This document shows, one piece after another, positions 16,621 to 34,063 of a stretch of 64,000 nt of DNA (its first letter is position 1; the number at the start of each line of letters is the position of its first letter). Location: assembly GCA_964530525.1 (NCBI GenBank), contig CAZHBH010000003.1:1002-65001 (forward strand), read 5' to 3'. The notes below the pieces were generated by a model. It did not search any database. It saw only the letters and a list, made by a program, of their open reading frames with translations, and was not told the origin of the DNA. A program made the translations under genes and the position numbers. The DNA is from an uncultured Rhabdothermincola sp. (lineage in GTDB: Bacteria > Actinomycetota > Acidimicrobiia > Acidimicrobiales > Acidimicrobilacustridaceae).

Positions 16621-16699
16621 CTCTGACCAGGACGTTCGTCCTGGTCAGAGGGAACTTCCTTGGCGCCCCCGCCAGGATTCGAACCTGGGCACACGGTTT
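16621..16699 (-). repeat. DR1: distal att-type copy of the tRNA-Arg 3' segment (36 nt + CCA) plus an 11-bp-stem hairpin
   Basis: 79 nt identical base-for-base to 19181..19259. Positions 16664..16699 equal the 3' 36 nt of the tRNA-Arg gene at 33992..34027. Hairpin CTCTGACCAGG-ACGTTCGT-CCTGGTCAGAG lies at 16621..16650. Confidence 0.9.
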
Positions 16700-17136
16700 G
16701 GGAACGACCATCCCTTAGGGGTGTAACCCCTGTCAGCGGCCCAGAGAATCCTCAAGGGACGTTGCTTCCCACCGCCTTCCCAAAGGATCTGGACCCCCAG
16801 ATCGGCTTAGGGGGGCGACGTTCGAGGAGGCGCCCCGTGCCCCGACCGACCCAACGCATCCAGCTGTTAGGCATCCAGGAGCGCCGATCGACCCCGCAGG
16901 CGACCCGACCCTGGGTCGTCTGCGTGCGGCGGGGACCTCGATCGGGAGCGAACCCGGGACCTCGCCCAGCGCGTCACCCTCAAGCTCGACGGCACACCGA
17001 TGGCCCCGAGCGGCGCGGCTCAGAGGCTCCGGTCGTCGTTCATGTCCATGAAGTCGACAGCGATGTCGACCGGCGGGGCGTCCATGTCGCTCAGAGGCTA
17101 GGCGTGGGCCGTCGCCTAGACCAGGGACGCAGCCGT

Positions 17137-17973
17137 TCAGTCCGGGTCGAGGAGCCTCGCGTGGAAGGCACCGACGGCGAGGACCGCGTCGGCTGACAGC
17201 GTGGCGGGATCGAGCTCCGGGTGGTCGAGGAACATCTGCTCGGAGTAGGCGGTCGGGCCTTGGTTGCCGGGGCTGGCGAAGTTCGCCGCCAGGTCGTCGA
17301 GCGTAGTGCGCATCGCTCCGACGAGTTCGGGGCCGAACGAGGCCCGCACCGCGTCGGCAGCGGGTTCGGGGCCACCTCGATCGTTGTGGAGCAGGACGAA
17401 CGCGATGTCGTACCAGTCCTTCGGCTTCCGCCGGCTGCCCGCTGCGGCTGCCTTGGCGAGGAGGAAGCCGGCAAGGCCGCTGACGTTGACCTCTGCCGTC
17501 AGCTCGACGCCACCGACCCGCGAGGTGAGCACGCGCACCTCGACATCGCGAGCGGCGAAGCCAGTGCCCCGCAGGTTGACGGCACCGAGGTTCTCGCAAG
17601 CGTCGAACTGCACGATCGCCTGGTTCGGCTGATCGTCGAGGTCTGCGAGCAGCTCGAACTTCACGACGGTCTTCGTCGGTGCGCCGTCGGCGACCCAGCG
17701 CCACACGCGTTCGGTGTCGGGCTCGAACTCGGCGTTCCTGAGGGCGTTCTCGAGCCTCGCGGTGTTGATGGCTCCGCAGGCGACCTCGAGATCGACCTGC
17801 ACGTCGACGTCAGTCGTGCCGGCGTGGCGCCAGGCGCTGCTTGCACACAGCAGCTCCGGAACGAGCCCACCGAGCACGACGAACTCGGGGCGACCGCCGT
17901 AGTGGTGCACCACGCGGACGAGCGCCGCCTCAGACGCGGCGCGAGCGGAGCGGGATCGCTCAGGTTCAGGCAT
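17137..17973 (-). CDS. nucleotidyltransferase-fold protein (AbiEii/DUF1814-like candidate toxin)
   Basis: FVVLGGLVPELLCASSAWRHAGTTDVDVQVDLEV fits the pol-beta NTase hGG-x(n)-DhDh signature. The ATG at 17973 overlaps the upstream stop (17966) by 8 nt, which suggests translational coupling. Confidence 0.6.
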   Translation of the reverse strand: MPEPERSRSARAASEAALVRVVHHYGGRPEFVVLGGLVPELLCASSAWRHAGTTDVDVQVDLEVACGAINTARLENALRNAEFEPDTERVWRWVADGAPTKTVVKFELLADLDDQPNQAIVQFDACENLGAVNLRGTGFAARDVEVRVLTSRVGGVELTAEVNVSGLAGFLLAKAAAAGSRRKPKDWYDIAFVLLHNDRGGPEPAADAVRASFGPELVGAMRTTLDDLAANFASPGNQGPTAYSEQMFLDHPELDPATLSADAVLAVGAFHARLLDPD

Positions 17974-18943
17974 CGCCGACAACCTCCCAGAGGTGCTCCG
18001 CAGCCTCCTCGCCACGGACGCCCGAGGCGCGCAGGTCGGCGTAGATGCGGGGCCATGGCGCGACGCGGAGGTCACCGGCCGGGGCCGACAGCCGCTTGGT
18101 CACTGACGTGGGGAACGGACGCAAGACCAGGCGACCTCCCTCGATCGGCTTGAGGCCAGCGCGGTCGGCGACCTCGTCGAGCGTGGCCGGGGTCGGCGCG
18201 TCGACGAAGACGTCCAGGCCGCTCACCTCGGTCAGGTAGGGAGCGAGGACTGCGGCGCCAGCCGGGCCGGTGGCTGCCCATGCCAGGCCGTCGGCATCCC
18301 ACCGCCGGCCGAGCTTCACCAGCTCGTCGGCGAGATCGCCGAGGACACCGACGCGGAGCATGAGGGGCTTGGTCGCAGTGAGAGCCGCATCGGCGTACGC
18401 CGTCAGCAGCGCCCGTCGGTCGCCGAGCTCCCGTGCCGAGGCCCTCCCACGTGGCGCGTCGGCCTCGAGCAGTCCGAGCGTCGTCAACGTCGCCAGCGCC
18501 TTCGTCGCAGAACCGGCCGACAGACCGGTCGTTCGCTCGACGTCGGCCACCGTGGGGCGCGTGCCGAGCAGCAGCGCCTCGGCCGTTCCGATGACCGATG
18601 GCGTCCAGCGCGGGGCCAGATCGGGCTTCGTCTCAGGCCGACCGCTCCGGGAGACGACAAGGCCGGGCAGGGAGATCTCTGCTCCACCCGCCTCGTCCAC
18701 CCACCCCAGCCCGGCGGCGGCGATCGCGGCACGGGCCCCGGGCGATATGCGCCGCGCGACCACGACGTCGACGTCGCCCTTCGGGCGATCCAACACGACG
18801 CGGACGTCGCCGAGCCAACCCTCGCCTGCCCATGCGGCTCGGACGCGAGCGCCGGCCACGTCGACCAGCGCGATGCCCTCGCCCGAACGGGCGAGGCGCA
18901 CAGGCGTGCCCGAAGGGAGGACGGCACGGATCGCCGTCTCCAT
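17966..18943 (-). CDS. AbiEi-like winged-helix protein (candidate type IV antitoxin / autorepressor)
   Basis: Central wHTH (TVADVERTTGLSAGSATKALATLTTLGLLEA). The C-terminus PWPRIYADLRASGVRGEEAAEHLWEV resembles the AbiEi C-terminal block. The start is uncertain: ATG 18943 or GTG 18979. Confidence 0.55.
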   Translation of the reverse strand: METAIRAVLPSGTPVRLARSGEGIALVDVAGARVRAAWAGEGWLGDVRVVLDRPKGDVDVVVARRISPGARAAIAAAGLGWVDEAGGAEISLPGLVVSRSGRPETKPDLAPRWTPSVIGTAEALLLGTRPTVADVERTTGLSAGSATKALATLTTLGLLEADAPRGRASARELGDRRALLTAYADAALTATKPLMLRVGVLGDLADELVKLGRRWDADGLAWAATGPAGAAVLAPYLTEVSGLDVFVDAPTPATLDEVADRAGLKPIEGGRLVLRPFPTSVTKRLSAPAGDLRVAPWPRIYADLRASGVRGEEAAEHLWEVVGDA

Positions 18944-18991
18944 CCTGCCGGAGCCAGCCTCCTGGTCGGTCGTGGTCACGACGACACAATA

Positions 18992-19048
18992 CCTCAGCCA
19001 AGTGAAATACTCACTGTGCAAGTGAGGATTTTGAATAGCTGAGGATTT
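18992..19048 (-). promoter_or_regulatory. repeat-rich, AT-richer putative promoter/operator region of the element A operon
   Basis: Inverted repeat CCTCAGC (18992-98) / GCTGAGG (19038-44). Palindrome AGTGA-N5-TCACT (19001-15). Direct repeat TGAGGATTT at 19023-31 and 19040-48. Confidence 0.4.
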
Positions 19049-19180
19049 CTTACGCGGGCTCGCCTGCCCGCGCAACAGAGGGGCAACCTCACGAAGCCGG
19101 CGCACATCTCCTCCCACACCCCTCCCAATCAGGTCGGGAGATGGTGGAGTCTGGCGGTCACCAGCGGTCAGGCCGCTACG

Positions 19181-19271
19181 CTCTGACCAGGACGTTCGTC
19201 CTGGTCAGAGGGAACTTCCTTGGCGCCCCCGCCAGGATTCGAACCTGGGCACACGGTTTAGGAAACCGATG
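19181..19271 (-). repeat. DR2: central att-type copy of the tRNA-Arg 3' segment (48 nt + CCA) plus hairpin
   Basis: 19181..19259 is identical to DR1. 19224..19271 is identical to 33992..34039, the 3' 48 nt of tRNA-Arg reaching through the anticodon arm. Confidence 0.9.
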
Positions 19272-19327
19272 GTTTATTTGCTTAAAAATGCTGGTCACAG
19301 GGTTGATTGTTGCTCATGATCTTGATT

Positions 19328-19373
19328 CTCCCCGAACTCTCCCCGTAAGATCTGGCTACGGTTAGCTACGGTT
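19328..19373 (+). promoter_or_regulatory. putative integrase arm-type sites (int-proximal end)
   Basis: TCTCCCCG occurs twice, 11 bp apart (19327-34 and 19338-45). GCTACGGTT occurs twice, 10 bp apart (19355-63 and 19365-73). All lie between the att core and the int start. Confidence 0.4.
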
Positions 19374-19400
19374 GGCTAAGCGGGGACAAGGGGGTCAGAG

Positions 19401-20771
19401 ATGGCGAGACCCGTGCAGGATGTGCGCATCTGGTCGCTCCAGGACCGGCGCAAGCACGCCATGGCCAAGCGGCCCTGGCTCGTGCGATGGGTGGTCGACG
19501 GCCGGGAGCACAACCGCTCCTACCGCACCCGAGCCGAAGCCGACCGCTACCGGTCTCAGCTCCTCGTGGCCCAGAGCAAGGCCGAGCGCTTCGACCACGA
19601 CAGCGGCGAGCCGGTGTCGTGGACACCAGTCACGGGCGACAAGCAGCTCGTCGCCTGGGTGCGCCAGTGGCTCGCCGAGCAGTGGCCGGAGTGGCAGCCC
19701 CGCACGCGAGCCTCAGCAGTGGAGGCGCTGGCCCGGTTCGTGCCCTTGGTGTGCTCGGCGTCGGCCCCAGAACCGCCAGCAGAGATGCGTGCCTATCTGG
19801 TCCAGTCCCTGCGCCCCGGTGCCGAGGTCGACGGCGCTCACCCGTGCGAACGGTGGCTGGCACGTTGGAGCCCGGCGCTCGGCCACCTCGACCGAGAGAT
19901 GATGGCCAACGTCGAACAGCAGTTGGCCATCGGCGCCAGTGGACAGCCCCTCTCGGCCAACGTCTCCAACCGCTACCGGACCACGGCGCACGCTTGCATC
20001 AAGCGAGCGGTGGAACTGGATGTGTTGGCAGCAGACCCGTGGCCACCTCCGCCGAGTGGTCGTCGGCGGCGCAAGAGCGCTCGCAAGCGCCGCTCGGTCG
20101 ACATCCGGCTCTTGCCCGATCCGGCCACGATGGAAGCCGCTATCGCTGCCATGCGCTCGCACCAGCCGGGCAGTCGCACCTACGAGGTCATGACCGCCGT
20201 GGCCTACTACGCCGGGCTCCGACCCTCCGAGGTGGTGGCGTTGCGCCCGCGATCGCTGGACCTGCCCGAGGAGGGCTGGGGTCGCATTGAGGTGGTCGAA
20301 GCCGACGTCGACTGGGACGAACCCGGCGAACCCAAGACCGGCCAGCGCTCCGTACCGATCCCGCCCCAGCTCGTGGCCATCCTGCGGTCGTGGATCGAGG
20401 ATGTCGGCGTGGGCGACGACAATCTGCTGTTTCGCACCAGAGGCAACAAGCGTCCGACCCAATCGAACTGGGGGAGAGCCTTGAAGCGTGGTCTGGCCGC
20501 CGTGGAGCACGACCCGATCCGGGTCTACGACTGCCGCCACGCTGCGGCCACCACATGGCTACGAGCAGGAGTCCCGCTCGGCGAGGTAGCTCGCCGCCTC
20601 GGCCACAGCGTCGAGACCCTGGTCTCCACCTACGTCGGCGCTCTCGAAGGCGACGAAGCCATCGCCAACGACCGCATCGAACAGGCTCTGTCCCCAACCG
20701 CCGAACGGTCGGCGTCTGCTGGATCTCAGCGGAGGAGACAAGCTCGATCGTCATCTTTCTATGTGGCCTAG
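19401..20771 (+). CDS. int: tyrosine-type site-specific integrase
   Basis: 456-aa ORF. Catalytic-domain landmarks are YYAGLRPSEVVAL (Arg), VYDCRHAAATTWL (H-x-x-R region) and LGHSVETLVSTYVG (His...Tyr). A Shine-Dalgarno AAGGGGG lies upstream. The gene is adjacent to the att repeat. Confidence 0.9.
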   Translation: MARPVQDVRIWSLQDRRKHAMAKRPWLVRWVVDGREHNRSYRTRAEADRYRSQLLVAQSKAERFDHDSGEPVSWTPVTGDKQLVAWVRQWLAEQWPEWQPRTRASAVEALARFVPLVCSASAPEPPAEMRAYLVQSLRPGAEVDGAHPCERWLARWSPALGHLDREMMANVEQQLAIGASGQPLSANVSNRYRTTAHACIKRAVELDVLAADPWPPPPSGRRRRKSARKRRSVDIRLLPDPATMEAAIAAMRSHQPGSRTYEVMTAVAYYAGLRPSEVVALRPRSLDLPEEGWGRIEVVEADVDWDEPGEPKTGQRSVPIPPQLVAILRSWIEDVGVGDDNLLFRTRGNKRPTQSNWGRALKRGLAAVEHDPIRVYDCRHAAATTWLRAGVPLGEVARRLGHSVETLVSTYVGALEGDEAIANDRIEQALSPTAERSASAGSQRRRQARSSSFYVA

Positions 20772-20902
20772 TCCGTCTCTAGGGACGCTTCGCCAACAGT
20801 GAGCGAACTAGCAGAGACTGAGTGGAAGATCTAGTCCAGTCGGAATTGATGAGTACGCCCTAGGTGCCTACTCTCAGTCTGAACGAGTTCTTCTCTGCAG
20901 GC

Positions 20903-22810
20903 TCAGGCGGCGATCTTCAGCGCCCGAGCGCCTGTAATGAGAGATTGGACGAGTTCAGGGACCTCTCCCTGCGCGTGGAGTGCTGCTTCTTGATAGGTCG
21001 CATGGTCCTTGCCGCTATATCCGAGACCGTCTTCTATTAGCGCCTCCTTCGCCTCTGCCCATGCTGGCCACATCTCCTCGAGGGCTTGTTCTAGGCCACC
21101 ATCGACGAATGTAAAGTTCGTAGCGACGCGACTGACGGGCCAGTCCAGTTCCGGGAGATTGAAAAAGCGTAGAAGTCTCCGATTCCAATCGATGGAGTCC
21201 TTGACGGAACCGGATAGCTTCTTTGCACGAACCTCGTCACCTCGGGACTCTACATCGGCCAATTCGTCCCGAAGGTGTGAATCGTTGTCCGCCACGAGAT
21301 ATACCGGGATGCCAATCTCGTCGAAGATTACGTAGGGCAAGAGGAGTCGTGTCTTGCCACCAGCCTCACCGATGAAGATGCCGTCCAACAGGAGTGGTAC
21401 AGATTCCTTGGTCGCGGCACCGGTCAAGACGGCGCGATCTGTGCTGCCCTCGACGAGAAGTACCACGTCAGCAAAGAATCCTTCTCCAAGCGCACCCAAG
21501 CAGACACCATCGAGTTGGCGCTGGATTGATTCTGGATCGATGAAAGTATCCAATCGTCGGACGACGTCGCCGACGCTCGAGCCCCGCACGATGACCCTCC
21601 CTTTGTTTCCAGACTGACGGGTCACGCGCCGAATCTGGTGAAACGACTTCGCTTCGATGAAGTATGGGCTGTGCGTCGCGTAGGTGACCTGGACACCCTT
21701 AGTTGCGTCCTCAGCGAGACCACGAAGCACAGCTGCGAACGATCTTGCTTGAAGTGGGTGCTGGTAGAGCTCGGGCTCTTCGATGGCTAGACACATGACT
21801 CCGTGGGTTGCCTCACGTCTCCCACGCTCAGCCAGCATCTTCAAGGCGGCGATCAGCAAGGCACGCTGAAATCCATGGCCCTGCCGCTCGACTCGCGTCT
21901 CAAGAGTGGAATCAAGAACCGCTACGTCAAATTGTACGCGCTGAGGCTTAAGTGGCTCTGACCGAGGAGTGACGGCCACGGCACGGCCCGTCGCGAACTC
22001 ACTGACTGCTGTCGTCAGCTCTGATGACAACTGGTCCAGTTGCTCCGACAGCAATCGGTTCTCGATCTCTGTCTGTGTTTTACCGAAGTTTTTGACTAGA
22101 TCTGCGATTTCCGCATCTACCTTCGTTCGATCGATTGCCTGCTCCAGGATCCGACCGATCACGGCGGTGCGTGAATCCGTCGTCTCCTCGGCAGCGCGGA
22201 GGTCGGCTGACACGAAGATGAAGTCGAAGAGCCCGGACATCAAGGCTTGGCCAGCGAAGCCGAAGAAATGGGACGTACTCTCGACGTCCGCGTCAGCGAG
22301 TTGATTCGGATGCTCCTGCTCCCACTCCGTCATCAGTTGGGACATGGCGGCATCGGTGGACCATGTAGGCAGCTCAAGTTCAGGCCTGTCAGCGCGAAGC
22401 GTTTGCCACAGACGCTTGCGTTCCGCCGCCGACCCGCCTGCGCGGACGGTGTCAAATCCCGCGAATGTCCGTCCGCGCCCGAAGATTTTGTCTTCGCCGT
22501 CGTGCCACCGTCTCCATAAGGTGACCGACTCGGCTGACGGAGGCGCGTACTTGCCCAAATGGCTCCGATCGTCGTCAGTAAGATGGTCGAACGTCACTTC
22601 GACCAGGACCACGCGCTCTGGATCGCGCTGGAAGACATCGTCCAAAGATAGAGACGAGCCCTTCGTTCCGTTGAAGAACCAGTCGAGTGCTCGGAGGATT
22701 GATGACTTCCCTGCACCGTTCGGACCTAGGAAGGTCGTGACTGCATCGAATCCTACCTCGATGTCCTCCAGGCCACGGAAGTTCTTGATGCGTAGCGAAG
22801 CGATCCTCAC
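20903..22810 (-). CDS. OLD-family nuclease (N-terminal ABC-type ATPase fused to C-terminal Toprim domain)
   Basis: IKNFRGLEDIEV...FLGPNGAGKSSILRAL is Walker A. QGHGFQRAL is signature-like. LAIEEPELYQHP is Walker B. YATHSP is the H-loop. The Toprim domain shows VVLLVEGSTDRAVL and VYLVADNDS. GTG start, preceded by GAGGGGGA. Confidence 0.85.
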   Translation of the reverse strand: MRIASLRIKNFRGLEDIEVGFDAVTTFLGPNGAGKSSILRALDWFFNGTKGSSLSLDDVFQRDPERVVLVEVTFDHLTDDDRSHLGKYAPPSAESVTLWRRWHDGEDKIFGRGRTFAGFDTVRAGGSAAERKRLWQTLRADRPELELPTWSTDAAMSQLMTEWEQEHPNQLADADVESTSHFFGFAGQALMSGLFDFIFVSADLRAAEETTDSRTAVIGRILEQAIDRTKVDAEIADLVKNFGKTQTEIENRLLSEQLDQLSSELTTAVSEFATGRAVAVTPRSEPLKPQRVQFDVAVLDSTLETRVERQGHGFQRALLIAALKMLAERGRREATHGVMCLAIEEPELYQHPLQARSFAAVLRGLAEDATKGVQVTYATHSPYFIEAKSFHQIRRVTRQSGNKGRVIVRGSSVGDVVRRLDTFIDPESIQRQLDGVCLGALGEGFFADVVLLVEGSTDRAVLTGAATKESVPLLLDGIFIGEAGGKTRLLLPYVIFDEIGIPVYLVADNDSHLRDELADVESRGDEVRAKKLSGSVKDSIDWNRRLLRFFNLPELDWPVSRVATNFTFVDGGLEQALEEMWPAWAEAKEALIEDGLGYSGKDHATYQEAALHAQGEVPELVQSLITGARALKIAA

Positions 22811-22832
22811 TCCATCCCCCTCTCGTCAGAAA

Positions 22833-22848
22833 ATCACACCAGTGTGAT
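22833..22848. promoter_or_regulatory. 7-2-7 inverted repeat (candidate operator) 23-38 nt upstream of the OLD gene start
   Basis: ATCACAC-CA-GTGTGAT inside the 149-bp spacer between the two nuclease genes. Confidence 0.3.
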
Positions 22849-22959
22849 CCGACAGCTCCGAACGTGCAACAGCTGGGGAAGATTCCAAGAGAAGGGGCAC
22901 TTCGGGACTGCCCGTACGTGCAGCGAGGAGGGTGACGCCCAGCTGGTGGAGGGCGGGAG

Positions 22960-24402
22960 TTAGAGATTCGATGCTGATGGGGGTTTACGAGCGTCGACAA
23001 GCGTACTCTTGAGATCGAGCCCGAGTTTATTGCCGAGTTCCCGCGTGCGCAGGGGCAGCGTCGTTCGTCGTTGACCTACGTCTGAGTTCCGCCGATGGCT
23101 TCGATATTGGATCGCGACGAATCGACCCACTGAACAACGGTCTGACTCAAGGTAGGAGGTCAGCTGATGTTCCAGCCCATTCCAGAACTTGCCATTGTGG
23201 AGTTTCTTAATCTCAAGCAGCGCACGGTTCTCATACCCACTGGAGAACTTGAAGTCGACTGGCCCGCGGCCAAGATCTACCTCGCGGTCGAGGACGATGT
23301 TGTGGGCGATGCAACGTGATTCAGCGAGAGCTCGGAAAAGGAGTTGAGCAGCTTCTTCATCCTTAGGGGTGCTATCATCATTGATCAGTCCATACCAGCC
23401 CCGTCGTTGTTCTACGAAGTGTTTGAAGTCCTTGATTAGCGAATCGATGAACGAGACGAAGGCTGGCTCATCTGTCACAGGAGCAAGGCTGAGTGGTGAT
23501 TCGGCAGCGTAGGCCTGTGCGTGGCGAAGCCAGTTGTAGATGCCCATGGGGTCCTGCTCGAGGTCATAGGGATCGGGGCTAATTCCCTCCCGCGCTCGGG
23601 TCCAGTTTTGGACCGCCTCAGGGTCGCGTCGTGCGAGATCGACGATGTCTTTTTTCCTCACATTGGATGAGATGTCGTAGTTGAGGTCAGCTCGGAGCTG
23701 TACAGCCTCCGAACTGGCCCAGAAGTCGTACGCATCGAGGCTGGGCAGCTTTCTGAGGAATCGCCTTGGCGTCAGGATCACGGGTAAGCCATTCTCCGGG
23801 TTGGTTGGCAACCTCACCTCGACAGGGTCCCAACGTAGGTATGTCGCATTGAACGCGCCTCGATCGATTCGATGCGGTTCCGTGGCAATCCCGTGCCGCG
23901 ACACCACTGTGATGGTGTACCTCGTGAACCTCTCGATGAGAACATTGCAGACGAGGTCGGAAATGCGGTCGCGCCCAATGCCTTCATTGAGAACCCCGAG
24001 GGTCTCGAAATGTGCAAGGTTCTCGATGCCTCTGTTGATCGAAAGCTCCATAGCTTCGCAGATACGCCGGGCATTGCCACGACCACTGCCAGATCCGCTG
24101 GTTCCGCTGTCAGTGAATCCGAGGCAGAACGGCCGTGGTTCGGGGAAGCGGAGAAGTTCCAGAGCCTTAGTCCGTTCCGGTGCGGAGGGTGTCTGTATCG
24201 TGTTCCCGACCATGTGGAACACGATGTTGAAGTAGGCAATCAGTTCAGCGTGAGCGCGGGCCCACAACTCCCCATCGTCCTTGAAGATTAGGAACGGATC
24301 TACGAACAACCGCGTGTCGGCACCGAGGATGGGGTCGAACCAGTCGTCGTCTTCTTCTATGAGTTCGATACCGAAGTAGTTTGAGAAGTAGTTTGCCGCC
24401 AT
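22960..24402 (-). CDS. hypothetical 480-aa protein with C-terminal PD-(D/E)xK nuclease-like domain
   Basis: ATG start, coding-like composition, low GC. The C-terminus reads DEEAAQLLFRALAE...DREVDLGRGPVDFKFSSGYENRALLEIKKL, which is the helix-E, D, ExK order of restriction-endonuclease-fold enzymes. I do not recognise the N-terminal ~350 aa. Confidence 0.6.
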   Translation of the reverse strand: MAANYFSNYFGIELIEEDDDWFDPILGADTRLFVDPFLIFKDDGELWARAHAELIAYFNIVFHMVGNTIQTPSAPERTKALELLRFPEPRPFCLGFTDSGTSGSGSGRGNARRICEAMELSINRGIENLAHFETLGVLNEGIGRDRISDLVCNVLIERFTRYTITVVSRHGIATEPHRIDRGAFNATYLRWDPVEVRLPTNPENGLPVILTPRRFLRKLPSLDAYDFWASSEAVQLRADLNYDISSNVRKKDIVDLARRDPEAVQNWTRAREGISPDPYDLEQDPMGIYNWLRHAQAYAAESPLSLAPVTDEPAFVSFIDSLIKDFKHFVEQRRGWYGLINDDSTPKDEEAAQLLFRALAESRCIAHNIVLDREVDLGRGPVDFKFSSGYENRALLEIKKLHNGKFWNGLEHQLTSYLESDRCSVGRFVAIQYRSHRRNSDVGQRRTTLPLRTRELGNKLGLDLKSTLVDARKPPSASNL

Positions 24403-25917: not shown

Positions 25918-25983
25918 AGTGAGTACGACGTATGATGTGACATATCCACGACATTGCAACCGGCTTTTCTGCGACGAGGATTC

Positions 25984-26319
25984 ATGACCACTCTGACCTC
26001 ACTACTTGACCACCTGTATGAAGGGGATGTGGTGGACACCGCGGATCTGGCGCGGGTCAGCGACACGAACCCACGGAGCGTGGCTCGTTGGAGGGCCGAA
26101 GCGGCTGCTCCGCGCCGGGACGCTGAGGAGCGACTGCTCGAGCTGCGCGCCGTCGTAGACCTGGCACGCAGGGTGATGAGAGATGACGCAGCCCGTCTCT
26201 GGATGCGGTCACCCAACCCCGATCTGGACTACGAGAAGCCGATCGATCTGGTTGCGGAAGGCCAGTACCAGCGAGTGATCGATCTTCTCCTCGCCTTGGC
26301 GGAGGGCGTCACCGCCTGA
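25984..26319 (+). CDS. DUF2384 (Xre/MbcA/ParS-type) antitoxin
   Basis: The C-terminal ARLWMRSPNPDLDYEKPIDLVAEGQYQRVIDLLLALAEGV is the classic DUF2384 block (W...pn..LgG..P.dl...g....v...L). The ATG at 25984 is preceded by GAGGA. The stop lies 1 nt before the RES gene. Confidence 0.75.
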   Translation: MTTLTSLLDHLYEGDVVDTADLARVSDTNPRSVARWRAEAAAPRRDAEERLLELRAVVDLARRVMRDDAARLWMRSPNPDLDYEKPIDLVAEGQYQRVIDLLLALAEGVTA

Positions 26320-26320
26320 G

Positions 26321-26857: not shown

Positions 26858-27069
26858 TCGCTCTAGCCAGCCCTTGTTATCAGCGCTCAGTGCTTTGTGC
26901 CTGATGTGAGGTCTCCGTGTCACTCATCCCTGAGACAGCGTATATAACCCTTAGTACCCAGTACTACTCGTCCAAGCAATGTGGCCACTATTCACCCATA
27001 TAACTCTCCATTTTCCGTTGTATAAAAGGAGAAAGGACGGCACATATGCACTCTCCGAGAGTGCTATGT

Positions 27070-28505
27070 GGGACTGTCCGACTGATTGTGTAAGTGGCGT
27101 GATCTGAGGGTCCGCGGCCTAGTGCCGTGGGCCAAGGAGGATCGCTGCGATGACAACCACTACTTCTACATCGATGACACCGGCTCCCGGCAAGGGTCTG
27201 CGCCTGCCCCGTATGGTGACCAAGGTGGGCGACGAGGAAGCAATGGGCGCCTGGGCCGATGAGCTCGTCGAGCGGGCTCGAGCCGAAGGCGTGGAGCTCA
27301 CCGGCGAGGACGGGCTGTTGACGGCTCTGGTTCGCCAGGTGCTCCAGACGGGCCTGGAGATCGAGATGACCGATCACCTCGGCTACGAACGCCACGACCC
27401 CGCTGGGCGAGGGTCGGGCAACTCCCGCAACGGGGCCTATCCCAAGACCCTCATCACCGAGATCGGAAAGGTCGACCTCGCTGTTCCGAGAGATCGCAAC
27501 GGCTCCTTCGAGCCGGCCACTGTGCCCAAGGGCCAGCGCCGCCTCGACGGGCTGACGGGTAACGTCACCTCGCTCTACGCGAAGGGCCTCAGCACCGGTG
27601 ACATCCAGGCGCACCTGGCGGAGATCTACGACTGCGACATCTCCCGAGACACCATTTCGCGCATCACCGATGCGGTGCTCGAAGACCTCGTCGCCTGGCA
27701 GAACCGGCCGCTGGATCGCATCCCGGTGATCTTGATCGACGCCATCGTGGTGAAGATCCGAGACGGCGCGGTGGCCAACCGCCCGATCTACGTGGCCATG
27801 GGCATCAACCTCGACGGTGAGCGAGACGTGCTGGGACTCTGGGTCGGGCCCACCGGCGGCGAGGGAGCCAAGTTCTGGCTCAACGTGCTCACAGAGCTGC
27901 GCAACCGTGGCATCCACGACACCTTCATCGTGTGCTGTGACGGCCTCAAGGGCCTCCCCGAGTCCATCCGGGCCACCTGGCCGTTGGCCGAGGTCCAGCT
28001 CTGCGTTGTTCACCTCGTGCGCTCTTCTATCCGTTACACCTCCAAGAAGCACTGGGGCCAGGTGTGCCGCGAGATGCGAGAGATCTACACCGCTCCGACG
28101 CTTGCTGCGGCAGAGGCCCGCTTCGGCGAGTTCTCCGACACCTGGCGCGAGAGATACCCCGCCATGGTGGAGACCTGGGAGCGGTCCTGGGCCGAGTTCG
28201 TCCCGTTCTTGGACTACCCGCCCGAGCTGCGCCAGGTCGTCTACACGACCAACGCCATCGAGAGTCTCAACGCCCGGTTCCGAAAGGCCGTGCGACATCG
28301 GGGCCACTTCCCAACTGAGCAGGCGGCCTTGAAGGTCCTCTACCTCGTGGCGATCGAGAGGAGGAAGAACCGCTCCAACCCCACCGGGAGGATCAACGGC
28401 TGGAAGCCGATCCTGAACGCACTGACCATCCACTACGGCGACCGCATCACCGCAGCTGCCTGACCATGACCGTCGCGTCGCTTACACAGAGAATCGGACA
28501 GTCCC
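27070..28505 (+). mobile_element. IS256-family insertion sequence (1436 bp)
   Basis: Terminal inverted repeats are GGGACTGTCCGACTGATTGTGTAAG (27070-94) and the reverse complement of 28481-505, GGGACTGTCCGATTCTCTGTGTAAG. They match at 21 of 25 positions. A single mutator-type transposase ORF lies inside. I could not find a flanking 8-9 bp target duplication. Confidence 0.8.
27150..28463 (+). CDS. tnp: IS256-family (mutator-type) transposase
   Basis: 437-aa ORF with LLTALVRQVLQTGLEIEMTDHLGYERHD...NSRNGAYPKTL...VPRDRNGSFEP...IDAIVVKIRDG...TTNAIESLN. These are canonical IS256 transposase blocks. Confidence 0.9.
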   Translation: MTTTTSTSMTPAPGKGLRLPRMVTKVGDEEAMGAWADELVERARAEGVELTGEDGLLTALVRQVLQTGLEIEMTDHLGYERHDPAGRGSGNSRNGAYPKTLITEIGKVDLAVPRDRNGSFEPATVPKGQRRLDGLTGNVTSLYAKGLSTGDIQAHLAEIYDCDISRDTISRITDAVLEDLVAWQNRPLDRIPVILIDAIVVKIRDGAVANRPIYVAMGINLDGERDVLGLWVGPTGGEGAKFWLNVLTELRNRGIHDTFIVCCDGLKGLPESIRATWPLAEVQLCVVHLVRSSIRYTSKKHWGQVCREMREIYTAPTLAAAEARFGEFSDTWRERYPAMVETWERSWAEFVPFLDYPPELRQVVYTTNAIESLNARFRKAVRHRGHFPTEQAALKVLYLVAIERRKNRSNPTGRINGWKPILNALTIHYGDRITAAA

Positions 28506-28639
28506 GAGTATGGAAGTGGAATCGCCTGGTATTGATCTCTAGCTCCGATCTTCTCTCATCACGGAGCTGGCGAATGGTGCCCCAGAGCCGCCGATAGGGG
28601 GATGCACTCGTCTCCCAGCAGGTGGGCGCGGGTCGGCCC

Positions 28640-31600
28640 CTACCAGCCCTCGGGATGCGGGAGACCGAGGCGGATGGCCTGTTCGACAACGACTCTGATG
28701 TGCGCTGGGTCACTCCCCACTCGAAGCCGCGGCATCAGTTCGTGCAGCTGGTACCCGCCCCACCACGGCTGCTCGGTGCTGCGCATCAGGTGGCCGATCA
28801 CCCTTGCGCACGCGTCCGGTGAGTCGTCGACGCGTCGTTCCAGGTGGCGTAGGACGTCGTCGTGCTCTCGGAAGCGGCCGGGCCGGCTGGTCACGAGGTG
28901 CGCTCCTGACTCAAAGGAGTTGCCCAGGAACGGGATCCACCCCACCATCGCTGTGGCCTCCTCGAATGAGAGCTGAGTCGGAATACTGGTCAGGCGGTTG
29001 CTCCAGTACGTATGCATCCACCGGGTCCACTGGTGTTCGACCGCTTCGCCGGGCAGTTTGTCCAGGATGTTGGCGACCTTGTCGGCGAACGTGGAGCGTT
29101 CGTCGTTGCTCAGGTCCACGATGACTCCTGGCAGCCACTCCAGGGGGTCACGGTCGCTGGTGAGGGCGATCCCGGCGAGGTGGCCGAGGATCGACCCTTG
29201 GTGCTTGTCATCGAGCTCACCTAGGTGACCGACGGCCTGGAGGTAGTGATCCATGAGCCCGGCGTCGAGCATCTGATCGTTCCAACGGCCCCAGCCGGTG
29301 AAGCTGTTCCAGGCTCGGCGAGCCCGAGGTGCATCGGACCAGTCGAGGAGCGGCATCACGTTCTGGATCGTCCAGTCCGGGTCGGCTGCAAACAGGAAGT
29401 GCAGCCGACTGGCGCAGATTACTTCAGCCATCTGCGTTCGGGACTCGCCCGAGGGGCCGCCGAGCATTGCCTCGAAGGCTTCGCGGTGCTCCTCTGTCAG
29501 GCCGGACCATGTCTCTTCATCTGCTCGCCAGTCGTGTTGGATGACGTGCAGCCAGAACTCAGCGAGGTTTCCCCCCGGGTGGTTGATCGCACGGGTGAGC
29601 CAGTCGATCTCGCCGAACACGACCTCTTCGTCGGGGATCAGCTGCCAGAGCTCTCGGGCCAGTTGCCGGGCTCCGGGCACGGCTGTCCAATCGGTGGGAT
29701 ATCCCTCGGATCGACCTCCGGCTGAGAGCATCCGAGCGAGATCCCGGGTGAGGGTCGTGTGGTCGAGAGCAGCGATGCGTCTAAGGACGTCTGCAGCCGC
29801 TTTGGCATCGAGTTCAGCGCGGCTCCATCCTTTGATGACAGCTTGTGTGACTTCGGCGTCTGGTGGATCGGCGTTGAGGAGCCGGTAGCCGTCATTCGGT
29901 TCGGTCTGAACCGCCGAGGTGATGAGGGTCAAGGAATCCTCCCAGGTGGGTACGCCCTCCCAATGGCCAACGCCCCTGGTCTCCTGCAGCGTCGAGAGCA
30001 GCGATGAAGGATCAGCTTCGAGCTGTTCATGGAGGTTCTCCACAGACATGGGGGGTCTTGAGGGAACAAACCCACTCTCCATCGAATGGGTCAGATCGGG
30101 GTTTGTTCGTGCTATCCAGGTCGGATCGACTGCGTGGGCCTCCGCCAGTGCCGCTGTGATGCGAGGGTGGTCAGGGCGGGACCGGTCCATCCAGACAAGT
30201 GCGTTGAACCGTTCGTAGGGCCGGTGCTCCGACTCCTCCTCGTCTGGTTCGAACACGGCACTGATGAGCGCCTCGATCGCCTCATCTGAGGCCCCTGGGA
30301 GAGCTGCAGCGATCAGGCGGAACGCCTCGTGGCGCACCCGGTGGTTGAAAAGCCAGCCGGAGCGCACCACCCAGTCGAGCTTGGCCGAGGAGTCGACGTC
30401 GCTCCGGTGGATCCAGCCATGGATAGCCAGGCGCTGGAGGATCTGCGAGTCTGCTGTGGCCCAGGACTGCAGATACCCGATTGCGATCGGATCAGAGGCA
30501 TTGAGCAGAGCTTCAATCCCATCGCGTGCCGCGTCGATCAGTACATCGATCGGCTCGGTGTATTCGTCCTGAGGATGTGGCTCAATGGCGCTCCGGCCGA
30601 ACGAGATTACATCAAAGCTGAGACTGCCTGGGTGAGCGGCGACCTGGAGATCACTCACTCGTCGTAGGTGCCGGTCGGCCATTGCGACGACCGCATGGAC
30701 AACCTCGGAGAGGTTCGGCTTGAGGATCTGAGCCCACGCCTCCTGGAGCCAGTGATCGTCGCCACGCAGGTGAATACCGAGGCGTGGCGGGCCCAACCCG
30801 AACGAGGATGTCAGCCCCGCGGTGGGTTCGGTCAAATGATCGAACAGCAGCAGAATCTGCTCCCGGTCATCTGGCCAGGTCGAGGCATTGAGCGCGAAAT
30901 CGAACCAGTTGCGAGTTGAGGTAGGCGCATCACGGAGCAGAAGCACGAGCCAGATTCCCAGCCAACCGGGCCGAGGTGCTCCACGACGGTGAAGTTGAAA
31001 CCCGATCTCGTCGCAGATCTCAGGTCCGAGGTAGCCACCGCTCTCGCTTACAAGGCCGAGCGCACGCTCTGTGTGCTCCTCCACCATTACAAAGAACTCA
31101 ACGAACCACCTGGCAAGGGCTCGTCCAGCTTCCGAGGGCGGCGATCCTCGGGCGAGCAACATCCTGAACACGGGCTGCGTAGCCGCCCAGTCGAGCCATT
31201 CTGGTGCTCGTGCGACCTTGGTGAAGAGCCCGACCCGGTCGGGATCAGCAATCAGCTCCTCAAGGTAAGAGGTGTCCTCAGGGATCTCCGAAGGCGGAGA
31301 CGCGACCAACTCGGCGACCCGCTGGCGATGGTCGAGCAGCCCCATCCCTGCGATCTCCGCCCAGCGGGCAAGCACATCTCCGAGCGCGGCGTGCGAGCCT
31401 GCAACAACCTCGTACCCAATAGGCCGAAGGCCAAGGTCCATCCAATCCCGCGCCCCGGGCGTGTCAGTGAGTATGTATCGGTGGCCATCAGGTCCGAGTG
31501 CTCGCGCCAGGTAACGCATGACCACGTCGCCATGGCTGTAGCCGATGAACAGCACACTGAACTTGGCGAACATCCGCTCCAAGAACCGCGCCGCCCAAGC

Positions 31601-32128
31601 ATCACGCAGGTACGCCTTGCCGAAGTCACCGTCGGTCACGACAAGGCGCTCTGGGGGCTGGCAAAGGGTACCGTGCAGGTACACCAGCCCGGTGAAGTCG
31701 TTGCCCACCGGTAGTGCCGGTGCTGCGTACTCCTCGACCTCGACTCCTCTGGCATGGATCACCGATGTCAGATGCCGATCGAAGTTGGTCGTGACGATCC
31801 TTAGATGTGGCGCTGTCAGCCCAAGATCCACGACTGCTTCGTGGAGGCGGTTGTGTTGCGACCGTGGAGCTCTGAGGTGCTCCGCAACACGGAGGTGAAC
31901 ATCGACACCTCGATCCTTGATACGCCCGAGCACGACGTCCGGGTGAAGGAGGTCGCCGTCATGCAGGGCGTAGCGTGTTTCATCGGCGATCGATCTCGTC
32001 AGCCGTTGGAAATCAGGAAGGTCAGACGGGGTGTCTCGGGAGGCACCTGCGCCAACGAACAGAACAAGGCGACCTGCTCGGTGCGCGTCGACCAGCTCCG
32101 AGGGAACCTCAACGCCACCGGCCCACAC
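28640..32128 (-). CDS. 1162-aa SIR2-domain protein with long helical C-terminal region (SIR2_2 + DUF4020-like; DSR-like single-gene defence candidate)
   Basis: The N-terminal ~230 aa read RLVLFVGAGASRD, IVTTNFDRHL, LVYLHGTL and VLFIGYSHGD, which is the SIR2_2 family with catalytic Asn/His positions present. The rest is about 900 aa rich in Trp, Leu and Asp with no motif I recognise. GTG start with no obvious SD. Confidence 0.8.
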   Translation of the reverse strand: MWAGGVEVPSELVDAHRAGRLVLFVGAGASRDTPSDLPDFQRLTRSIADETRYALHDGDLLHPDVVLGRIKDRGVDVHLRVAEHLRAPRSQHNRLHEAVVDLGLTAPHLRIVTTNFDRHLTSVIHARGVEVEEYAAPALPVGNDFTGLVYLHGTLCQPPERLVVTDGDFGKAYLRDAWAARFLERMFAKFSVLFIGYSHGDVVMRYLARALGPDGHRYILTDTPGARDWMDLGLRPIGYEVVAGSHAALGDVLARWAEIAGMGLLDHRQRVAELVASPPSEIPEDTSYLEELIADPDRVGLFTKVARAPEWLDWAATQPVFRMLLARGSPPSEAGRALARWFVEFFVMVEEHTERALGLVSESGGYLGPEICDEIGFQLHRRGAPRPGWLGIWLVLLLRDAPTSTRNWFDFALNASTWPDDREQILLLFDHLTEPTAGLTSSFGLGPPRLGIHLRGDDHWLQEAWAQILKPNLSEVVHAVVAMADRHLRRVSDLQVAAHPGSLSFDVISFGRSAIEPHPQDEYTEPIDVLIDAARDGIEALLNASDPIAIGYLQSWATADSQILQRLAIHGWIHRSDVDSSAKLDWVVRSGWLFNHRVRHEAFRLIAAALPGASDEAIEALISAVFEPDEEESEHRPYERFNALVWMDRSRPDHPRITAALAEAHAVDPTWIARTNPDLTHSMESGFVPSRPPMSVENLHEQLEADPSSLLSTLQETRGVGHWEGVPTWEDSLTLITSAVQTEPNDGYRLLNADPPDAEVTQAVIKGWSRAELDAKAAADVLRRIAALDHTTLTRDLARMLSAGGRSEGYPTDWTAVPGARQLARELWQLIPDEEVVFGEIDWLTRAINHPGGNLAEFWLHVIQHDWRADEETWSGLTEEHREAFEAMLGGPSGESRTQMAEVICASRLHFLFAADPDWTIQNVMPLLDWSDAPRARRAWNSFTGWGRWNDQMLDAGLMDHYLQAVGHLGELDDKHQGSILGHLAGIALTSDRDPLEWLPGVIVDLSNDERSTFADKVANILDKLPGEAVEHQWTRWMHTYWSNRLTSIPTQLSFEEATAMVGWIPFLGNSFESGAHLVTSRPGRFREHDDVLRHLERRVDDSPDACARVIGHLMRSTEQPWWGGYQLHELMPRLRVGSDPAHIRVVVEQAIRLGLPHPEGW

Positions 32129-32256
32129 AGTCGACGATCGTAGGCTGAAAGTTCATCGTGGCCGATGAAGCCCCGACGGAACGGTAGGCCGAGAGTCCCC
32201 ACTCGGCAGGAAGATTCCCAACCCGGCACGCCACTCTGAGATAAGGAGGACCAACC

Positions 32257-32799
32257 ATGATGCACACTGACGACGACCTCATAGCCGCAGCCCACCTCAT
32301 TGCCACCGAGTGGACCGAGCTTGCCGAGATCGCTGGGCTTCTCGCTCGGTTTTCTGGTATCAGGGGGGCTGCTGAGCAGGCGTGGATGGATGCCTTCTTC
32401 GTCCACGACCGGTGCCTCATCAACTTCCTCTGCGGCGGGTACAAGGGCAGGTGGCAGGTCGACGACATCAAGCCCGCCGATTTCCTCGGCGATCTGTGGA
32501 CCCTTGAGGACGAGGACCTCGACCGTCAGCTACGCGGCCGCCTCGCCACCATCAATTCCAAGATGGCTCACCTAACGTGGAAGAACTTCACCGACGACGC
32601 GCCGATCATCTGGAACGCCGGGTCCCTTGCGCACGAAACGCACTACGCCATGGGGCTGTTCGTCGCTGCACTGGAGGCCGCAGGCCGGCCCGGGCTTGGA
32701 GTGCTCAAACAGGCCCAGGCGACAGCGCAGACCTCTCTCCCGGCTCTCCGAAAAGTCCGTCAGACCGCAGCGCCCCAAGCGCCGCTGCGGCACCAATAG
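32257..32799 (+). CDS. hypothetical protein (180 aa)
   Basis: ATGATG start 7-8 nt after a perfect AAGGAGG. Coding-like codon usage. Divergent from the SIR2 gene. No recognisable motif. Confidence 0.6.
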   Translation: MMHTDDDLIAAAHLIATEWTELAEIAGLLARFSGIRGAAEQAWMDAFFVHDRCLINFLCGGYKGRWQVDDIKPADFLGDLWTLEDEDLDRQLRGRLATINSKMAHLTWKNFTDDAPIIWNAGSLAHETHYAMGLFVAALEAAGRPGLGVLKQAQATAQTSLPALRKVRQTAAPQAPLRHQ

Positions 32800-32915
32800 C
32801 GGAGATTCCCGACGTGTCCCCGCTGTGCCGTTCGAGGTGAGCACGATGCTCGCTGGCGGCGCTGAGGCTGAGTATGGGAAAGAAATGATGGCAGCGGTTC
32901 TTCTTTGGTTTCGAA

Positions 32916-33449
32916 CTACGTGCTGCCTTGAGCCCCGATGAGTTGGAGGGCTGCGCTGGGGCTGTGGGTTTCGGTGAGGGTTCGCCAGTGGTCGACGAGG
33001 TTGTCGGGGACTTGGAGGGCGGCGTCGACGTAGTCGAGGTGGAGGTGGGGGTCTCGGCAGGTGTCGCCTGGGTTGATCGAGTAGTCGTAGGTCAGCTGCT
33101 GGAGCAGGTCCTCAGCGGTGTCGGCGACCTCGCACCACAGGCGGGCTGGCCAGGAGTCGATTCCCTTGTGGTGGATCACGTACTCCACGTAGTGGCCGAG
33201 CGTGTGGAGGGCACGCATCACTGACTCGCAGGCGGAGTCGACGCCGCCCTCGCTGAAAGTGATCGCCCAGTCGGCTCGATTCAGATCGTCGGCTGCTATA
33301 GCGGCGATGTCCCTCCCAGCGGGATCGTCGAAGTGCTGGGCGACCCTCCAGCAGGCGAGCACTAGCTCTCGGCACGTCGAGGCGATCACCTCGGGTGTCA
33401 TAGGTCCGTTCCCTGGGCCGTGACGGGGCGCTCTCGTAGAATCCGTCAT
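32916..33449 (-). CDS. hypothetical protein (177 aa)
   Basis: The ATG at 33449 lies 7 nt after a perfect AAGGAGG. Acidic and His-rich. No recognisable motif. Confidence 0.6.
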   Translation of the reverse strand: MTDSTRAPRHGPGNGPMTPEVIASTCRELVLACWRVAQHFDDPAGRDIAAIAADDLNRADWAITFSEGGVDSACESVMRALHTLGHYVEYVIHHKGIDSWPARLWCEVADTAEDLLQQLTYDYSINPGDTCRDPHLHLDYVDAALQVPDNLVDHWRTLTETHSPSAALQLIGAQGST

Positions 33450-33522
33450 GTCAGTACCTCCTTGCAGGTGCTGGCACGGGCTGGGGGGAGGGCCAACTCC
33501 CCTCAGCCCACCTTCACTTGTT

Positions 33523-33556
33523 GATCACCAAATCCTATCTCCACCATTTGGTGATC
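33523..33556. promoter_or_regulatory. perfect 11-bp inverted repeat with 12-bp spacer (candidate operator) in a divergent intergenic region
   Basis: GATCACCAAAT (33523-33) - N12 - ATTTGGTGATC (33546-56), between the start of 32916..33449(-) and the start of 33603..33788(+). Confidence 0.45.
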
Positions 33557-33602
33557 GTCAAGGGATTCAAAGGGGAGGGGAACTGCTGACTACGGTGGTG
33601 GC

Positions 33603-33788
33603 GTGAAGCTCGACCTGGTGGGCGTGGCCGAGATCGCTACTCTTCTCAGCGTCACGACGCAAAGGGTCGACCAGCTGGCTCGGACCAAGGGGTTCCCTGA
33701 GCCGGTAGCCGTCATCTCGGCCGGGCGCATCTGGCTTCTCAAGGACATCGAGCGCTGGGCGAAGCAGACCGGCCGCTCTCCCGGCTGA
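33603..33788 (+). CDS. small HTH DNA-binding protein (excisionase/AlpA-like, HTH_17-type)
   Basis: The 61-aa product reads VAEIATLLSVTTQRVDQLARTKGFPEPVAVISAGRIWLLKDIERWAKQ, a pattern of HTH followed by a conserved W. The start codon is uncertain (several in-frame GTGs). Confidence 0.6.
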   Translation: MKLDLVGVAEIATLLSVTTQRVDQLARTKGFPEPVAVISAGRIWLLKDIERWAKQTGRSPG

Positions 33789-33862
33789 AGCATCCCTGGC
33801 CCTAGCCAGCCCGACCTCCACTCGTCGCGCGCAGCCGGTACGGGCCTTCTGATCCGGCAATC

Positions 33863-33891
33863 CTCCCCGTGCTCTCCCCGTAGCCTCCCCG
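33863..33891 (+). promoter_or_regulatory. putative integrase arm-type sites (tRNA-proximal end)
   Basis: CTCCCCGT occurs three times with exact 11-bp phasing, starting at 33863, 33874 and 33885. The motif and strand are the same as the pair at 19328/19339. Confidence 0.4.
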
Positions 33892-33946
33892 TGAACGAGG
33901 GGAAATCGAGGTCAGAAGGGGTGAACGGCGGTTACCAGCGGCGAAG

Positions 33947-33976
33947 CTCTGACCAGGGTGTTTATCCTGGTCAGAG
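33947..33976 (-). terminator. hairpin immediately 3' of tRNA-Arg
   Basis: CTCTGACCAGG-GTGTTTAT-CCTGGTCAGAG. The 11-bp stems are the same as in DR1 and DR2 but the loop differs. It lies 15 nt downstream of the tRNA 3' end on the minus strand. Confidence 0.5.
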
Positions 33977-33991
33977 CCAATCTCTGCACTG

Positions 33992-34063
33992 CGCCCCCGC
34001 CAGGATTCGAACCTGGGCACACGGTTTAGGAAACCGATGCTCTATCCCCTGAGCTACGAGGGC
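33992..34063 (-). tRNA. tRNA-Arg (anticodon CCU)
   Basis: The reverse complement folds by hand. Acceptor GCCCTCG/CGGGGGC, D arm GCTC-AGGGGATA-GAGC, anticodon loop TTCCTAA, T arm CCAGG-TTCGAAT-CCTGG, discriminator G. Length 72 nt. CCA is not encoded; the next bases are CAG. Confidence 0.9.

Follow-up and report, generated by a model that had tools for sequence, protein, structure and literature searches.

The tRNA-Arg(CCU) gene of an uncultured Rhabdothermincola sp. (class Acidimicrobiia; GenBank assembly GCA_964530525.1, contig CAZHBH010000003.1) adjoins a 17.4-kb genomic island, described here within the 64,000-nucleotide stretch of DNA that was analysed (the window). The island consists of two segments in tandem, element B next to the tRNA gene and element A beyond it, delimited by displaced copies of the tRNA 3′ end (Table 1). 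Serial tandem accretion of two related integrative elements at one tRNA-Arg(CCU) attachment (att) site, as put forward in a first-pass annotation of the window, is in our view likely, and is supported by the complete integration module of B, by the family-type arm repeats and integrase (Int) remnant of A, and by the recurrence of the A cargo elsewhere. That the two elements are related and share an att site stands, but A is a decayed remnant without an intact integrase and not a second complete element.

The tRNA gene and its displaced 3′ copies

The live tRNA-Arg(CCU) gene was located by both ARAGORN and Rfam on the minus strand, where it had first been placed; Rfam detected two tRNAs in the window and nothing else. 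Exact-match extension shows that the 3′ end of this gene recurs twice, with all three copies co-oriented on the minus strand: 49 nt are repeated in DR2 (19223-19271, matching 33991-34039 of the tRNA) and 37 nt in DR1 (16663-16699, matching 33991-34027), so that the copies reported earlier are real while their lengths, then given as 48 and 36 nt, were each one nucleotide short. DR1 (16621-16699) and DR2 (19181-19259) are moreover identical to one another over 79 nt, and this block includes, as previously noted, an encoded CCA after the discriminator base (TGG on the plus strand) and a hairpin; beyond the tRNA the identity covers a further 43 nt, including the hairpin, at whose base it breaks off abruptly. 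The live tRNA has no encoded CCA, CAG following instead, and its 3′ 49 nt now come from element B. The identity blocks of the two elements begin at different points, that of A within the anticodon loop and that of B at the 5′ side of the anticodon stem.

Table 1. Features of the tRNA-Arg(CCU) island, in window coordinates.
Feature	Position	Strand	Remarks
tRNA-Arg(CCU), live	33991-34063	-	ARAGORN; Rfam gives 33992-34063
DR1 (attR of A)	16621-16699	-	hairpin 16621-16650, CCA 16661-16663, 37-nt tRNA 3′ fragment 16663-16699
DR2 (attR of B fused to attL of A)	19181-19271	-	hairpin 19181-19210, spacer, CCA 19221-19223, 49-nt tRNA 3′ fragment 19223-19271
Element A	16700-19180		70-73% GC
A P arm	16700-16839	+	CCCCTGTCAGCGG 16727-16739; arm repeats TCCCACCGCCTTCCCA 16767-16782
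Integrase pseudogene remnant of A	16840-17047	+	blastx
21-codon stump of a third A cargo gene	17020-17085	-	403 aa in L091
AbiEii-like nucleotidyltransferase toxin of A, 278 aa, intact	17137-17973	-	
AbiEi-like HTH regulator/antitoxin of A, 351 aa, intact relative to L091	17966-19021	-	
A P′ arm	19108-19180		arm repeats TCCCACACCCCTCCCA 19112-19127; GGCGGTCACCAGCGG 19153-19167
Element B, 14.7-kb integrative genomic island	19272-33990		57-65% GC
B P arm	19272-19400	+	GCTGGTCACAGGG 19290-19302; two CTCCCCG repeats 19328-19345
Tyrosine integrase of B, intact, 456 aa	19401-20771	+	PF00589 over residues 244-412
OLD-family ATPase-TOPRIM nuclease	20903-22810	-	PADLOC Old
480-aa protein, candidate defence family PDC-M36A	22960-24402	-	phrog_30194 end to end, E 3.5e-57
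Excisionase-like HTH_17 protein, 76 aa	24490-24720	-	HTH_17, E 6.5e-9
AbiEi antitoxin-like regulator of B	25045-25917	+	AbiEi_1; no adjacent AbiEii
Xre/ParS antitoxin and RES-domain toxin	25954-26319 and 26321-26857	+	
IS256-family insertion sequence	27070-28505	+	Mutator-type transposase 27150-28463
SIR2_2 + DUF4020 protein, 1162 aa	28640-32128	-	PADLOC Dsr1
Two ORFs without assigned function, 180 aa and 177 aa	32257-33449	+ and -	
B P′ arm (attL side)	33860-33990		three CTCCCCG repeats 33863-33891; GGCGGTTACCAGCGG 33927-33941; hairpin 33947-33976

Element B

Element B contains a complete integration module. As first described, 130 bp separate the end of DR2 from the start of its tyrosine integrase (19401). 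Residues R274, K312, R379, H402 and Y411 of this integrase are invariant in the family alignment; no sequence match to it was found in the Protein Data Bank (PDB). The excisionase-like gene that had been noticed alongside it is likewise present, and its HTH_17 product is 68% identical to the Xis of two related elements (L005 and L006, introduced below). CTCCCCG repeats lie at both ends, against an expectation of 0.06: the P arm has two copies and the P′ arm three. B should still be able to excise on its own by recombination between the tRNA gene and DR2.

Searches of B against Pfam, NCBIfam, PHROGs and PADLOC returned no relaxase, no FtsK-like TraB and no replication genes, and Pfam revealed no capsid, tail or terminase domains; the only PHROGs matches in B are the integrase, the excisionase and one family of unknown function. 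B is therefore neither an integrative and mobilizable element (IME), an integrative and conjugative element (ICE) or an actinomycete ICE (AICE) nor a prophage. The GC content, a windowed scan of which the first-pass annotation had proposed as a check, sets B apart (57-65% GC against about 69% in the host and flanks), but A, at 70-73%, is host-like.

A conserved att-site layout in the integrase family

The comparison set comprised 80 metagenomic loci together with several Logan and European Nucleotide Archive (ENA) contigs that were fetched, identified here by L numbers. The B integrase has hundreds of homologues in metagenomes at 55-73% identity, the few that carry a taxonomic name belonging to Acidimicrobiales and Nocardioidaceae. 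Against phage integrases its identity reaches at most 32% (about 29% for mycobacteriophage), with the similarity confined to the catalytic domain.

Judged across about 46-55 non-redundant homologous junctions, the region upstream of int has the same layout at nearly all loci, in which a tRNA-Arg 3′ fragment is followed by a CCWGGTCAGRG motif, two direct arm repeats and the int ATG. The anticodon of the fragment varies between loci and is CCG, CCU or UCG. At a fixed offset of about 66 nt from the fragment 3′ end, a strict regular expression finds a CCWGGTCAGRG-like motif in 35 of the 46 non-redundant junctions, and inspection by eye in about 45 of 55; the two direct arm repeats, usually TCCCA-N4-CYTCCCA, follow at an offset of about 100-108, and the int start codon lies 60-80 nt beyond them. 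In B this motif is represented by GCTGGTCACAGGG, at an offset of about 66 from the fragment 3′ end. A limited literature search found no description of the att layout of this tRNA-Arg family in Acidimicrobiia.

Three of the loci (L013, L021 and L045) are whole elements of 7.5-9.6 kb that extend from a tRNA fragment to a full tRNA, and in each its own arm repeats recur at the tRNA-proximal end. L005 and L006, which are more closely related, encode a TrwC relaxase and are therefore IMEs; their TrwC has no match in the window. Multi-fragment arrays, or junctions of the type P′-core-P, are found in the independent contigs L007, L031, L063-L064 and L085.

Two arrangements among these contigs were recorded separately. 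L007 has at least three co-oriented tRNA-Arg(CCG) fragments, at about 1293, 9606 and 9821 (regions 1180-1300 and 9600-9900). Two of them enclose 8.3 kb of metabolic genes with no integrase among them, and P′-arm-like sequence lies to the left of the first, so that L007 is a larger array of the same kind as the A-B locus. At L031 (4797-5045) and L068 (10-256) a complete tRNA-Arg(CCG) gene has int on its 5′ side and the P′ arm of a neighbouring element on its 3′ side; either attP carries a whole tRNA copy there or two elements flank one tRNA.

Element A

Element A presents this design in reduced form. Only two sequences of the type TCCCA-N4-CYTCCCA are present in the window, one at each end of A (16767 and 19112), where 0.02 would be expected, and their orientation and offsets are those that the family predicts; a degenerate family motif, CCCCTGTCAGCGG, lies at offset 65. 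The element-side flanks next to DR2 and next to the tRNA had also been noted to match at 14 of 15 positions, and the window indeed contains the shared sequence GGCGGTNACCAGCGG at two places only, 19153 and 33927.

A remnant of the integrase gene is situated exactly where the family places int. In a blastx comparison of 16700-17200 with 120 family integrases, PRPTQRIQLLGIQERRSTPQATRPWVV (16840-16920) aligned to residues 3-29 of the family Int at 45-59% identity (E 2e-6 to 3e-4, many members), followed by a weak, frame-shifted but collinear match of 16931-17047 to residues ~160-200. The remnant emerged only by this comparison with 120 members, as tblastn of the B integrase against the window had detected neither a paralogue nor a remnant in A. 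Genes for a relaxase or for transfer were not found in A.

The cargo of A is known from other metagenomes, where it occurs at 87-93% nucleotide identity beside tRNA-Arg(CCU) 3′ ends or P′ arms. The Logan contigs L091 and L092 carry the A-type toxin-antitoxin pair (93% identity) beside a tRNA-Arg(CCU) 3′ end and continue into a gene of 403 aa, of which homology in the window ends after 21 codons (17020-17085); L093, 87% identical to A, shares the P′ arm, and its sequence begins within the P′ hairpin. The 21-codon stump marks the deletion junction in A, which therefore once had an int gene and further cargo that were later lost by deletion. The family of the AbiEii-like toxin is widespread in Acidimicrobiia.

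Since attL, the toxin-antitoxin pair, gene scraps and attR remain without an intact int, A is best described as a decayed, non-autonomous remnant resembling a cis-mobilizable element (CIME): at the sequence level both attL and attR are retained (DR1, DR2 and the arm repeats at 16767-16782 and 19112-19127), and neither an intact int nor transfer genes are present. The arm repeats differ between the elements (CYTCCCA in A, CTCCCCG in B). A and B are thus relatives whose arm specificities have diverged, and owing to this difference the B integrase probably does not service A. Having lost its own integrase as well, A should be immobile unless a cognate CYTCCCA-type integrase is supplied in trans.

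A separate observation concerns the region around the 5′ end of the A AbiEi-like gene (putative start codon at 19021), where an inverted repeat, CTCACTGTGCAAGTGAG, and nearby direct repeats, TGAGGATTT, lie at 19004-19050. These repeats are kept in L091 and L093 and probably form an autoregulatory AbiEi operator.

The hairpin beside the tRNA 3′ end

The hairpin in DR1 and DR2 has the form CTCTGACCAGG-N8-CCTGGTCAGAG, and a variant with an unchanged stem and a different loop (CTCTGACCAGG-GTGTTTAT-CCTGGTCAGAG) is found at 33947-33976. The general pattern TGACCNG-N4-12-CNGGTCA occurs three times in the 64 kb, only at these three hairpins, where 0.13 occurrences would be expected. Its placement across the 80 related metagenomic loci leads us to assign the hairpin to the P′ arm of the elements, of which it appears to be a part, rather than to a native terminator of the host tRNA. 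Among the complete elements the tRNA-side hairpin is perfect in L021 (GGCCCTGACCAGG...CCTGGTCAGGGCC, 10-20 nt from the tRNA 3′ end), imperfect in L045 and not evident in L013, where a single CTGGTCA copy stands at the tRNA side; it is also element-internal in L011 and L031, and the host side of 39 of the 46 int-proximal fragments has none. Hairpin-only scars are seen at the outer fragments of L084 and L075.

The hairpin may serve as an element-supplied terminator for the regenerated tRNA, as a protein-binding palindrome, or as both. A scan for the canonical intrinsic terminator consensus did not support it, there being no T-run, while the 76-77-nt segments that contain it fold at -37 to -42 kcal/mol (z about -5). 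Actinobacterial terminators may lack U-tracts. The idea that it is itself the crossover site, a lox/dif-like 11-8-11 arrangement, was considered and ruled out: the identity block of attL and attR lies inside the tRNA in both B and L013 and excludes the hairpin, and the loop and spacer of the B hairpin differ from those of DR2, which also counts against such a role.

A more far-reaching interpretation, which we think unlikely, is that the hairpin is more than a terminator: a palindromic pair of the CCWGGTCAGRG site, of which the P arm has a single copy at its fixed offset of ~66 nt, and a conserved candidate binding site for Int, Xis or a host factor that would define an undescribed attP architecture in a large tRNA-Arg-specific family of Acidimicrobiia and Actinomycetota. 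If so, hairpin scars such as those in DR1, L084 and L075 could prime a site for repeated capture, and the frequent multi-element arrays of the family would be explained.

Flanking genes and a related genome

As the first-pass annotation had it, the genes between the repeats are accessory and those outside look like ordinary chromosomal ones: a Zn-dependent alcohol dehydrogenase (ADH) and an AcpH-like protein in the left flank, and an ArsR-type regulator, a DinB/MDMPI-type protein and an acetoacetate-decarboxylase-like protein in the right. A scan of genome contigs with the AcpH-like flank protein as query yielded one rather distant relative only, a Rhabdothermincola metagenome-assembled genome (L001; Iamiaceae, Acidimicrobiia) of 78-84% nucleotide identity. 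In L001 the ADH and AcpH-like genes are followed by tRNA-Arg(CCU) in the same orientation as in the window, but the distance from the AcpH-like gene to the tRNA is 0.7 kb there against 17.6 kb here, and that interval holds no hairpin and none of the A or B genes, its DNA being unrelated to the window. This near adjacency supports an insertion, from one side only. The empty site that had been predicted, in which the tRNA is followed directly by the hairpin and the AcpH-like gene, is probably not the ancestral one, because the hairpin appears to be derived from the elements.

On the other side of the tRNA, the ArsR block (34321-35223 in the window) has the opposite orientation in L001 (6801-7640) and stands on the far side of the ADH and AcpH-like genes, which means that chromosomal rearrangement has taken place around the tRNA hotspot. 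A tblastx comparison of the L001 right flank with the window gave noise only.

Within the 0.7 kb of L001 (9532-9959), two short ORFs (68 and 73 aa) also abut on the minus strand, in a layout that resembles a toxin-antitoxin pair.

History of the locus and alternative explanations

From these features we infer the following order of events. Tyrosine integrases of one actinobacterial family would target the segment of tRNA-Arg genes from the anticodon loop to the 3′ end, the P′ arm of the incoming element bringing a tRNA 3′ half together with the hairpin, so that the tRNA would be regenerated and its old 3′ end pushed outward as a fragment. An A-type element would have integrated first. Internal deletions would then have stripped it of most of its integrase and of other genes but left both att arms and the AbiE-like toxin-antitoxin pair, whose presence plausibly protects the remnant against loss. 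B would then have integrated into the regenerated tRNA, which still offered a complete anticodon stem-loop, and the IS256 copy would have landed in B later; the resulting order along the direction of tRNA transcription would be tRNA-B-DR2-A-DR1. The decay and host-like GC content of A, against the low GC content and intact module of B, fit an earlier arrival of A.

The hairpin of DR1 calls for a further step. As the hairpin is an element feature, the sequence displaced by A would already have held an A-type P′-proximal segment, and the simplest reading is that it represents the scar of an earlier A-type occupant, which would have been removed by a deletion ending at the hairpin. The DR1 hairpin by itself would thus point to a third, earlier occupant of the site, which we regard as probable. 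The 218 nt to the left of DR1 (16403-16620) do not match any P′ arm of the family.

Several points weigh against this history. The order of integration is not derivable from the final structure, and the perfect 79-nt identity of DR1 and DR2 beyond the tRNA needs the extra event just described. The host-like GC content of A gives no compositional support for its foreign origin. L001 was the only genome match and is 78-84% identical, the 5′ flank of its tRNA is not syntenic and its ArsR block is elsewhere; neither a close relative nor a population variant in which the site is empty or half filled was recovered. The Logan contigs of the same organism, retrieved by exact-protein look-ups of window genes, are short, as expected from k-mer branching, and all break inside the repeats, which leaves the A-B junction to the submitted assembly alone.

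A quite different history, which we hold to be rather improbable, would have the A-B composite accreted in a previous host and acquired in one step through its outer att sites. The final structure would be the same under either history, transfer of a CIME-ICE tandem as a unit is documented (PMC5704250), and the complete identity of DR1 and DR2 over 79 nt fits a recent single arrival. However, the GC contents of A and B suggest different residence times or donors, and the repeats of the A P arm and the B P′ arm differ, so that one integrase would have needed to use mismatched arms.

Less credible still is that the tandem is an assembly artefact, in which A and B occupied the same tRNA in different cells and were stitched together through the 37-79-nt repeats. 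The sequence appears to be a metagenome-derived contig of 69 kb, k=31 assemblies of the same organism break exactly at these repeats, and the DR2 junction is without independent read-level support; yet this junction (A P′ arm, fragment, B P arm) spans only about 92 nt, within reach of 150-nt reads, and equivalent junctions and arrays in L007, L031, L063-L064 and L085 indicate that the arrangement is biologically common.

That A is a native toxin-antitoxin operon of the host, bracketed by a duplicated tRNA 3′ end and with only B mobile, would agree with its host-like GC content, its lack of a functional integrase and the frequency of AbiE-like pairs as chromosomal genes in Acidimicrobiia, but is largely refuted and can be given almost no credence in view of the family-specific arm repeats, which in the window are confined to the two ends of A, the Int remnant and P-arm motif at canonical offsets, the recurrence of the toxin-antitoxin module next to tRNA-Arg 3′ ends and P′ arms from other samples, and the absence of A between the AcpH-like gene and the tRNA in L001.

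Relation to known systems

Serial accretion at the tRNA-Arg(CCU) site would follow a route already described, in which an ICE or IME integrates, decays to a CIME and is joined by a newly integrated IME, with a Streptomyces example among those reported (PMC5704250). As in the ICESt1/CIME arrays of Streptococcus thermophilus and the accretion of Streptomyces pathogenicity islands (PMC5704250), an integrase-less member with attL and attR lies in tandem with an integrase-bearing element at one target gene, a shared att repeat between them. The present locus differs from the ICESt1/CIME arrays in its target, tRNA-Arg(CCU), and its host, an Acidimicrobiia genome; in its arm-type repeats, which differ between the members so that cis-mobilization of A by the B integrase is doubtful; and in that neither member has conjugation or mobilization genes.

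Tandem arrays in tRNA genes (tDNAs) have been catalogued, Islander listing 125 tandems among 3919 islands with anticodon-centred sites as the commonest class (PMC4383910). The present island shares with the Islander/TIGER tDNA islands (PMC4383910) an intact tDNA at one end with co-oriented, displaced 3′ fragments, an internal tyrosine integrase (the PF00589 protein of B) and an anticodon-centred crossover, with an identity block that starts in or at the anticodon stem-loop. In contrast, an Islander array call needs an integrase for each member, and A, with its scrap of ~27 codons, would be missed or merged.

AICEs of the pSAM2 type, like B, have an int-xis module. In the 13.5-kb example from Streptomyces sp. 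NBC_00859 (NZ_CP108827.1; L095) the integrase is about 31% identical to that of B over its full length, and attP likewise comprises a hairpin, a tRNA 3′ fragment and then a CTG-TC-AGAGG-like motif, although the hairpin sequence is unrelated and the target is a tRNA-Ser rather than a tRNA-Arg gene. Unlike AICEs, B is without an FtsK/TraB translocase, Spd proteins and prim-pol/Rep.

Although labelled a plasmid, the NZ_CP108827.1 record (examined at 1-200 and 13300-13544) represents an AICE in its free form, in which int and xis are accompanied by prim-pol, FtsK/TraB and SpdB. Its attP combines a strong hairpin with a tRNA-Ser(UGA) 3′ fragment and a CTGTTCTCAGAGG motif, and the ends of the record duplicate about 50 nt.

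The cargo of the island, as in defence islands carried on integrative elements, is mostly anti-phage and toxin-antitoxin genes (Old, Dsr1, PDC-M36A, AbiE-like, RES/Xre); set against such islands it contains nothing unusual, all systems matching existing PADLOC or Pfam models.

With tRNA islands, tandem arrays and CIME accretion all established, and with such islands a familiar route by which bacteria acquire foreign DNA, the locus is a real but ordinary example of them and changes no concept. Its additions are modest: A is recognized as decayed, the hairpin is reassigned to the elements, and the conserved attP layout of a widespread tRNA-Arg-targeting family in Acidimicrobiia is sketched for the first time. 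It illustrates how a single tRNA gene can act as a reusable landing pad, a remnant with a toxin-antitoxin pair coming to lie under a fresh island of defence genes. For annotation, the island boundaries are now fixed and two tRNA-like fragments explained; tools that need one integrase per array member would miss A, and the att layout of the family could help to delimit such islands in metagenome-assembled genomes.

Further features of the island and its surroundings

Within B, the 480-aa PDC-M36A candidate is placed between the OLD nuclease and the excisionase and has no Pfam domain. The IS256 copy has 33-nt imperfect inverted repeats (27070-27102 and 28473-28505); no clear 8-9-bp target-site duplication was seen, and no obviously interrupted gene could be reconstructed. 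The AbiEi gene of B directly precedes the Xre/RES pair, and could represent either an orphan regulator or one whose toxin partner has been swapped.

Outside the island, a perfect hexanucleotide repeat, (GTCCGA)n, of about 10 units lies at 34650-34715 in the C-terminal part of the ArsR-family gene (34252-34740, plus strand), where it encodes an in-frame (Ser-Glu)n tail and could be a length-variable tract.

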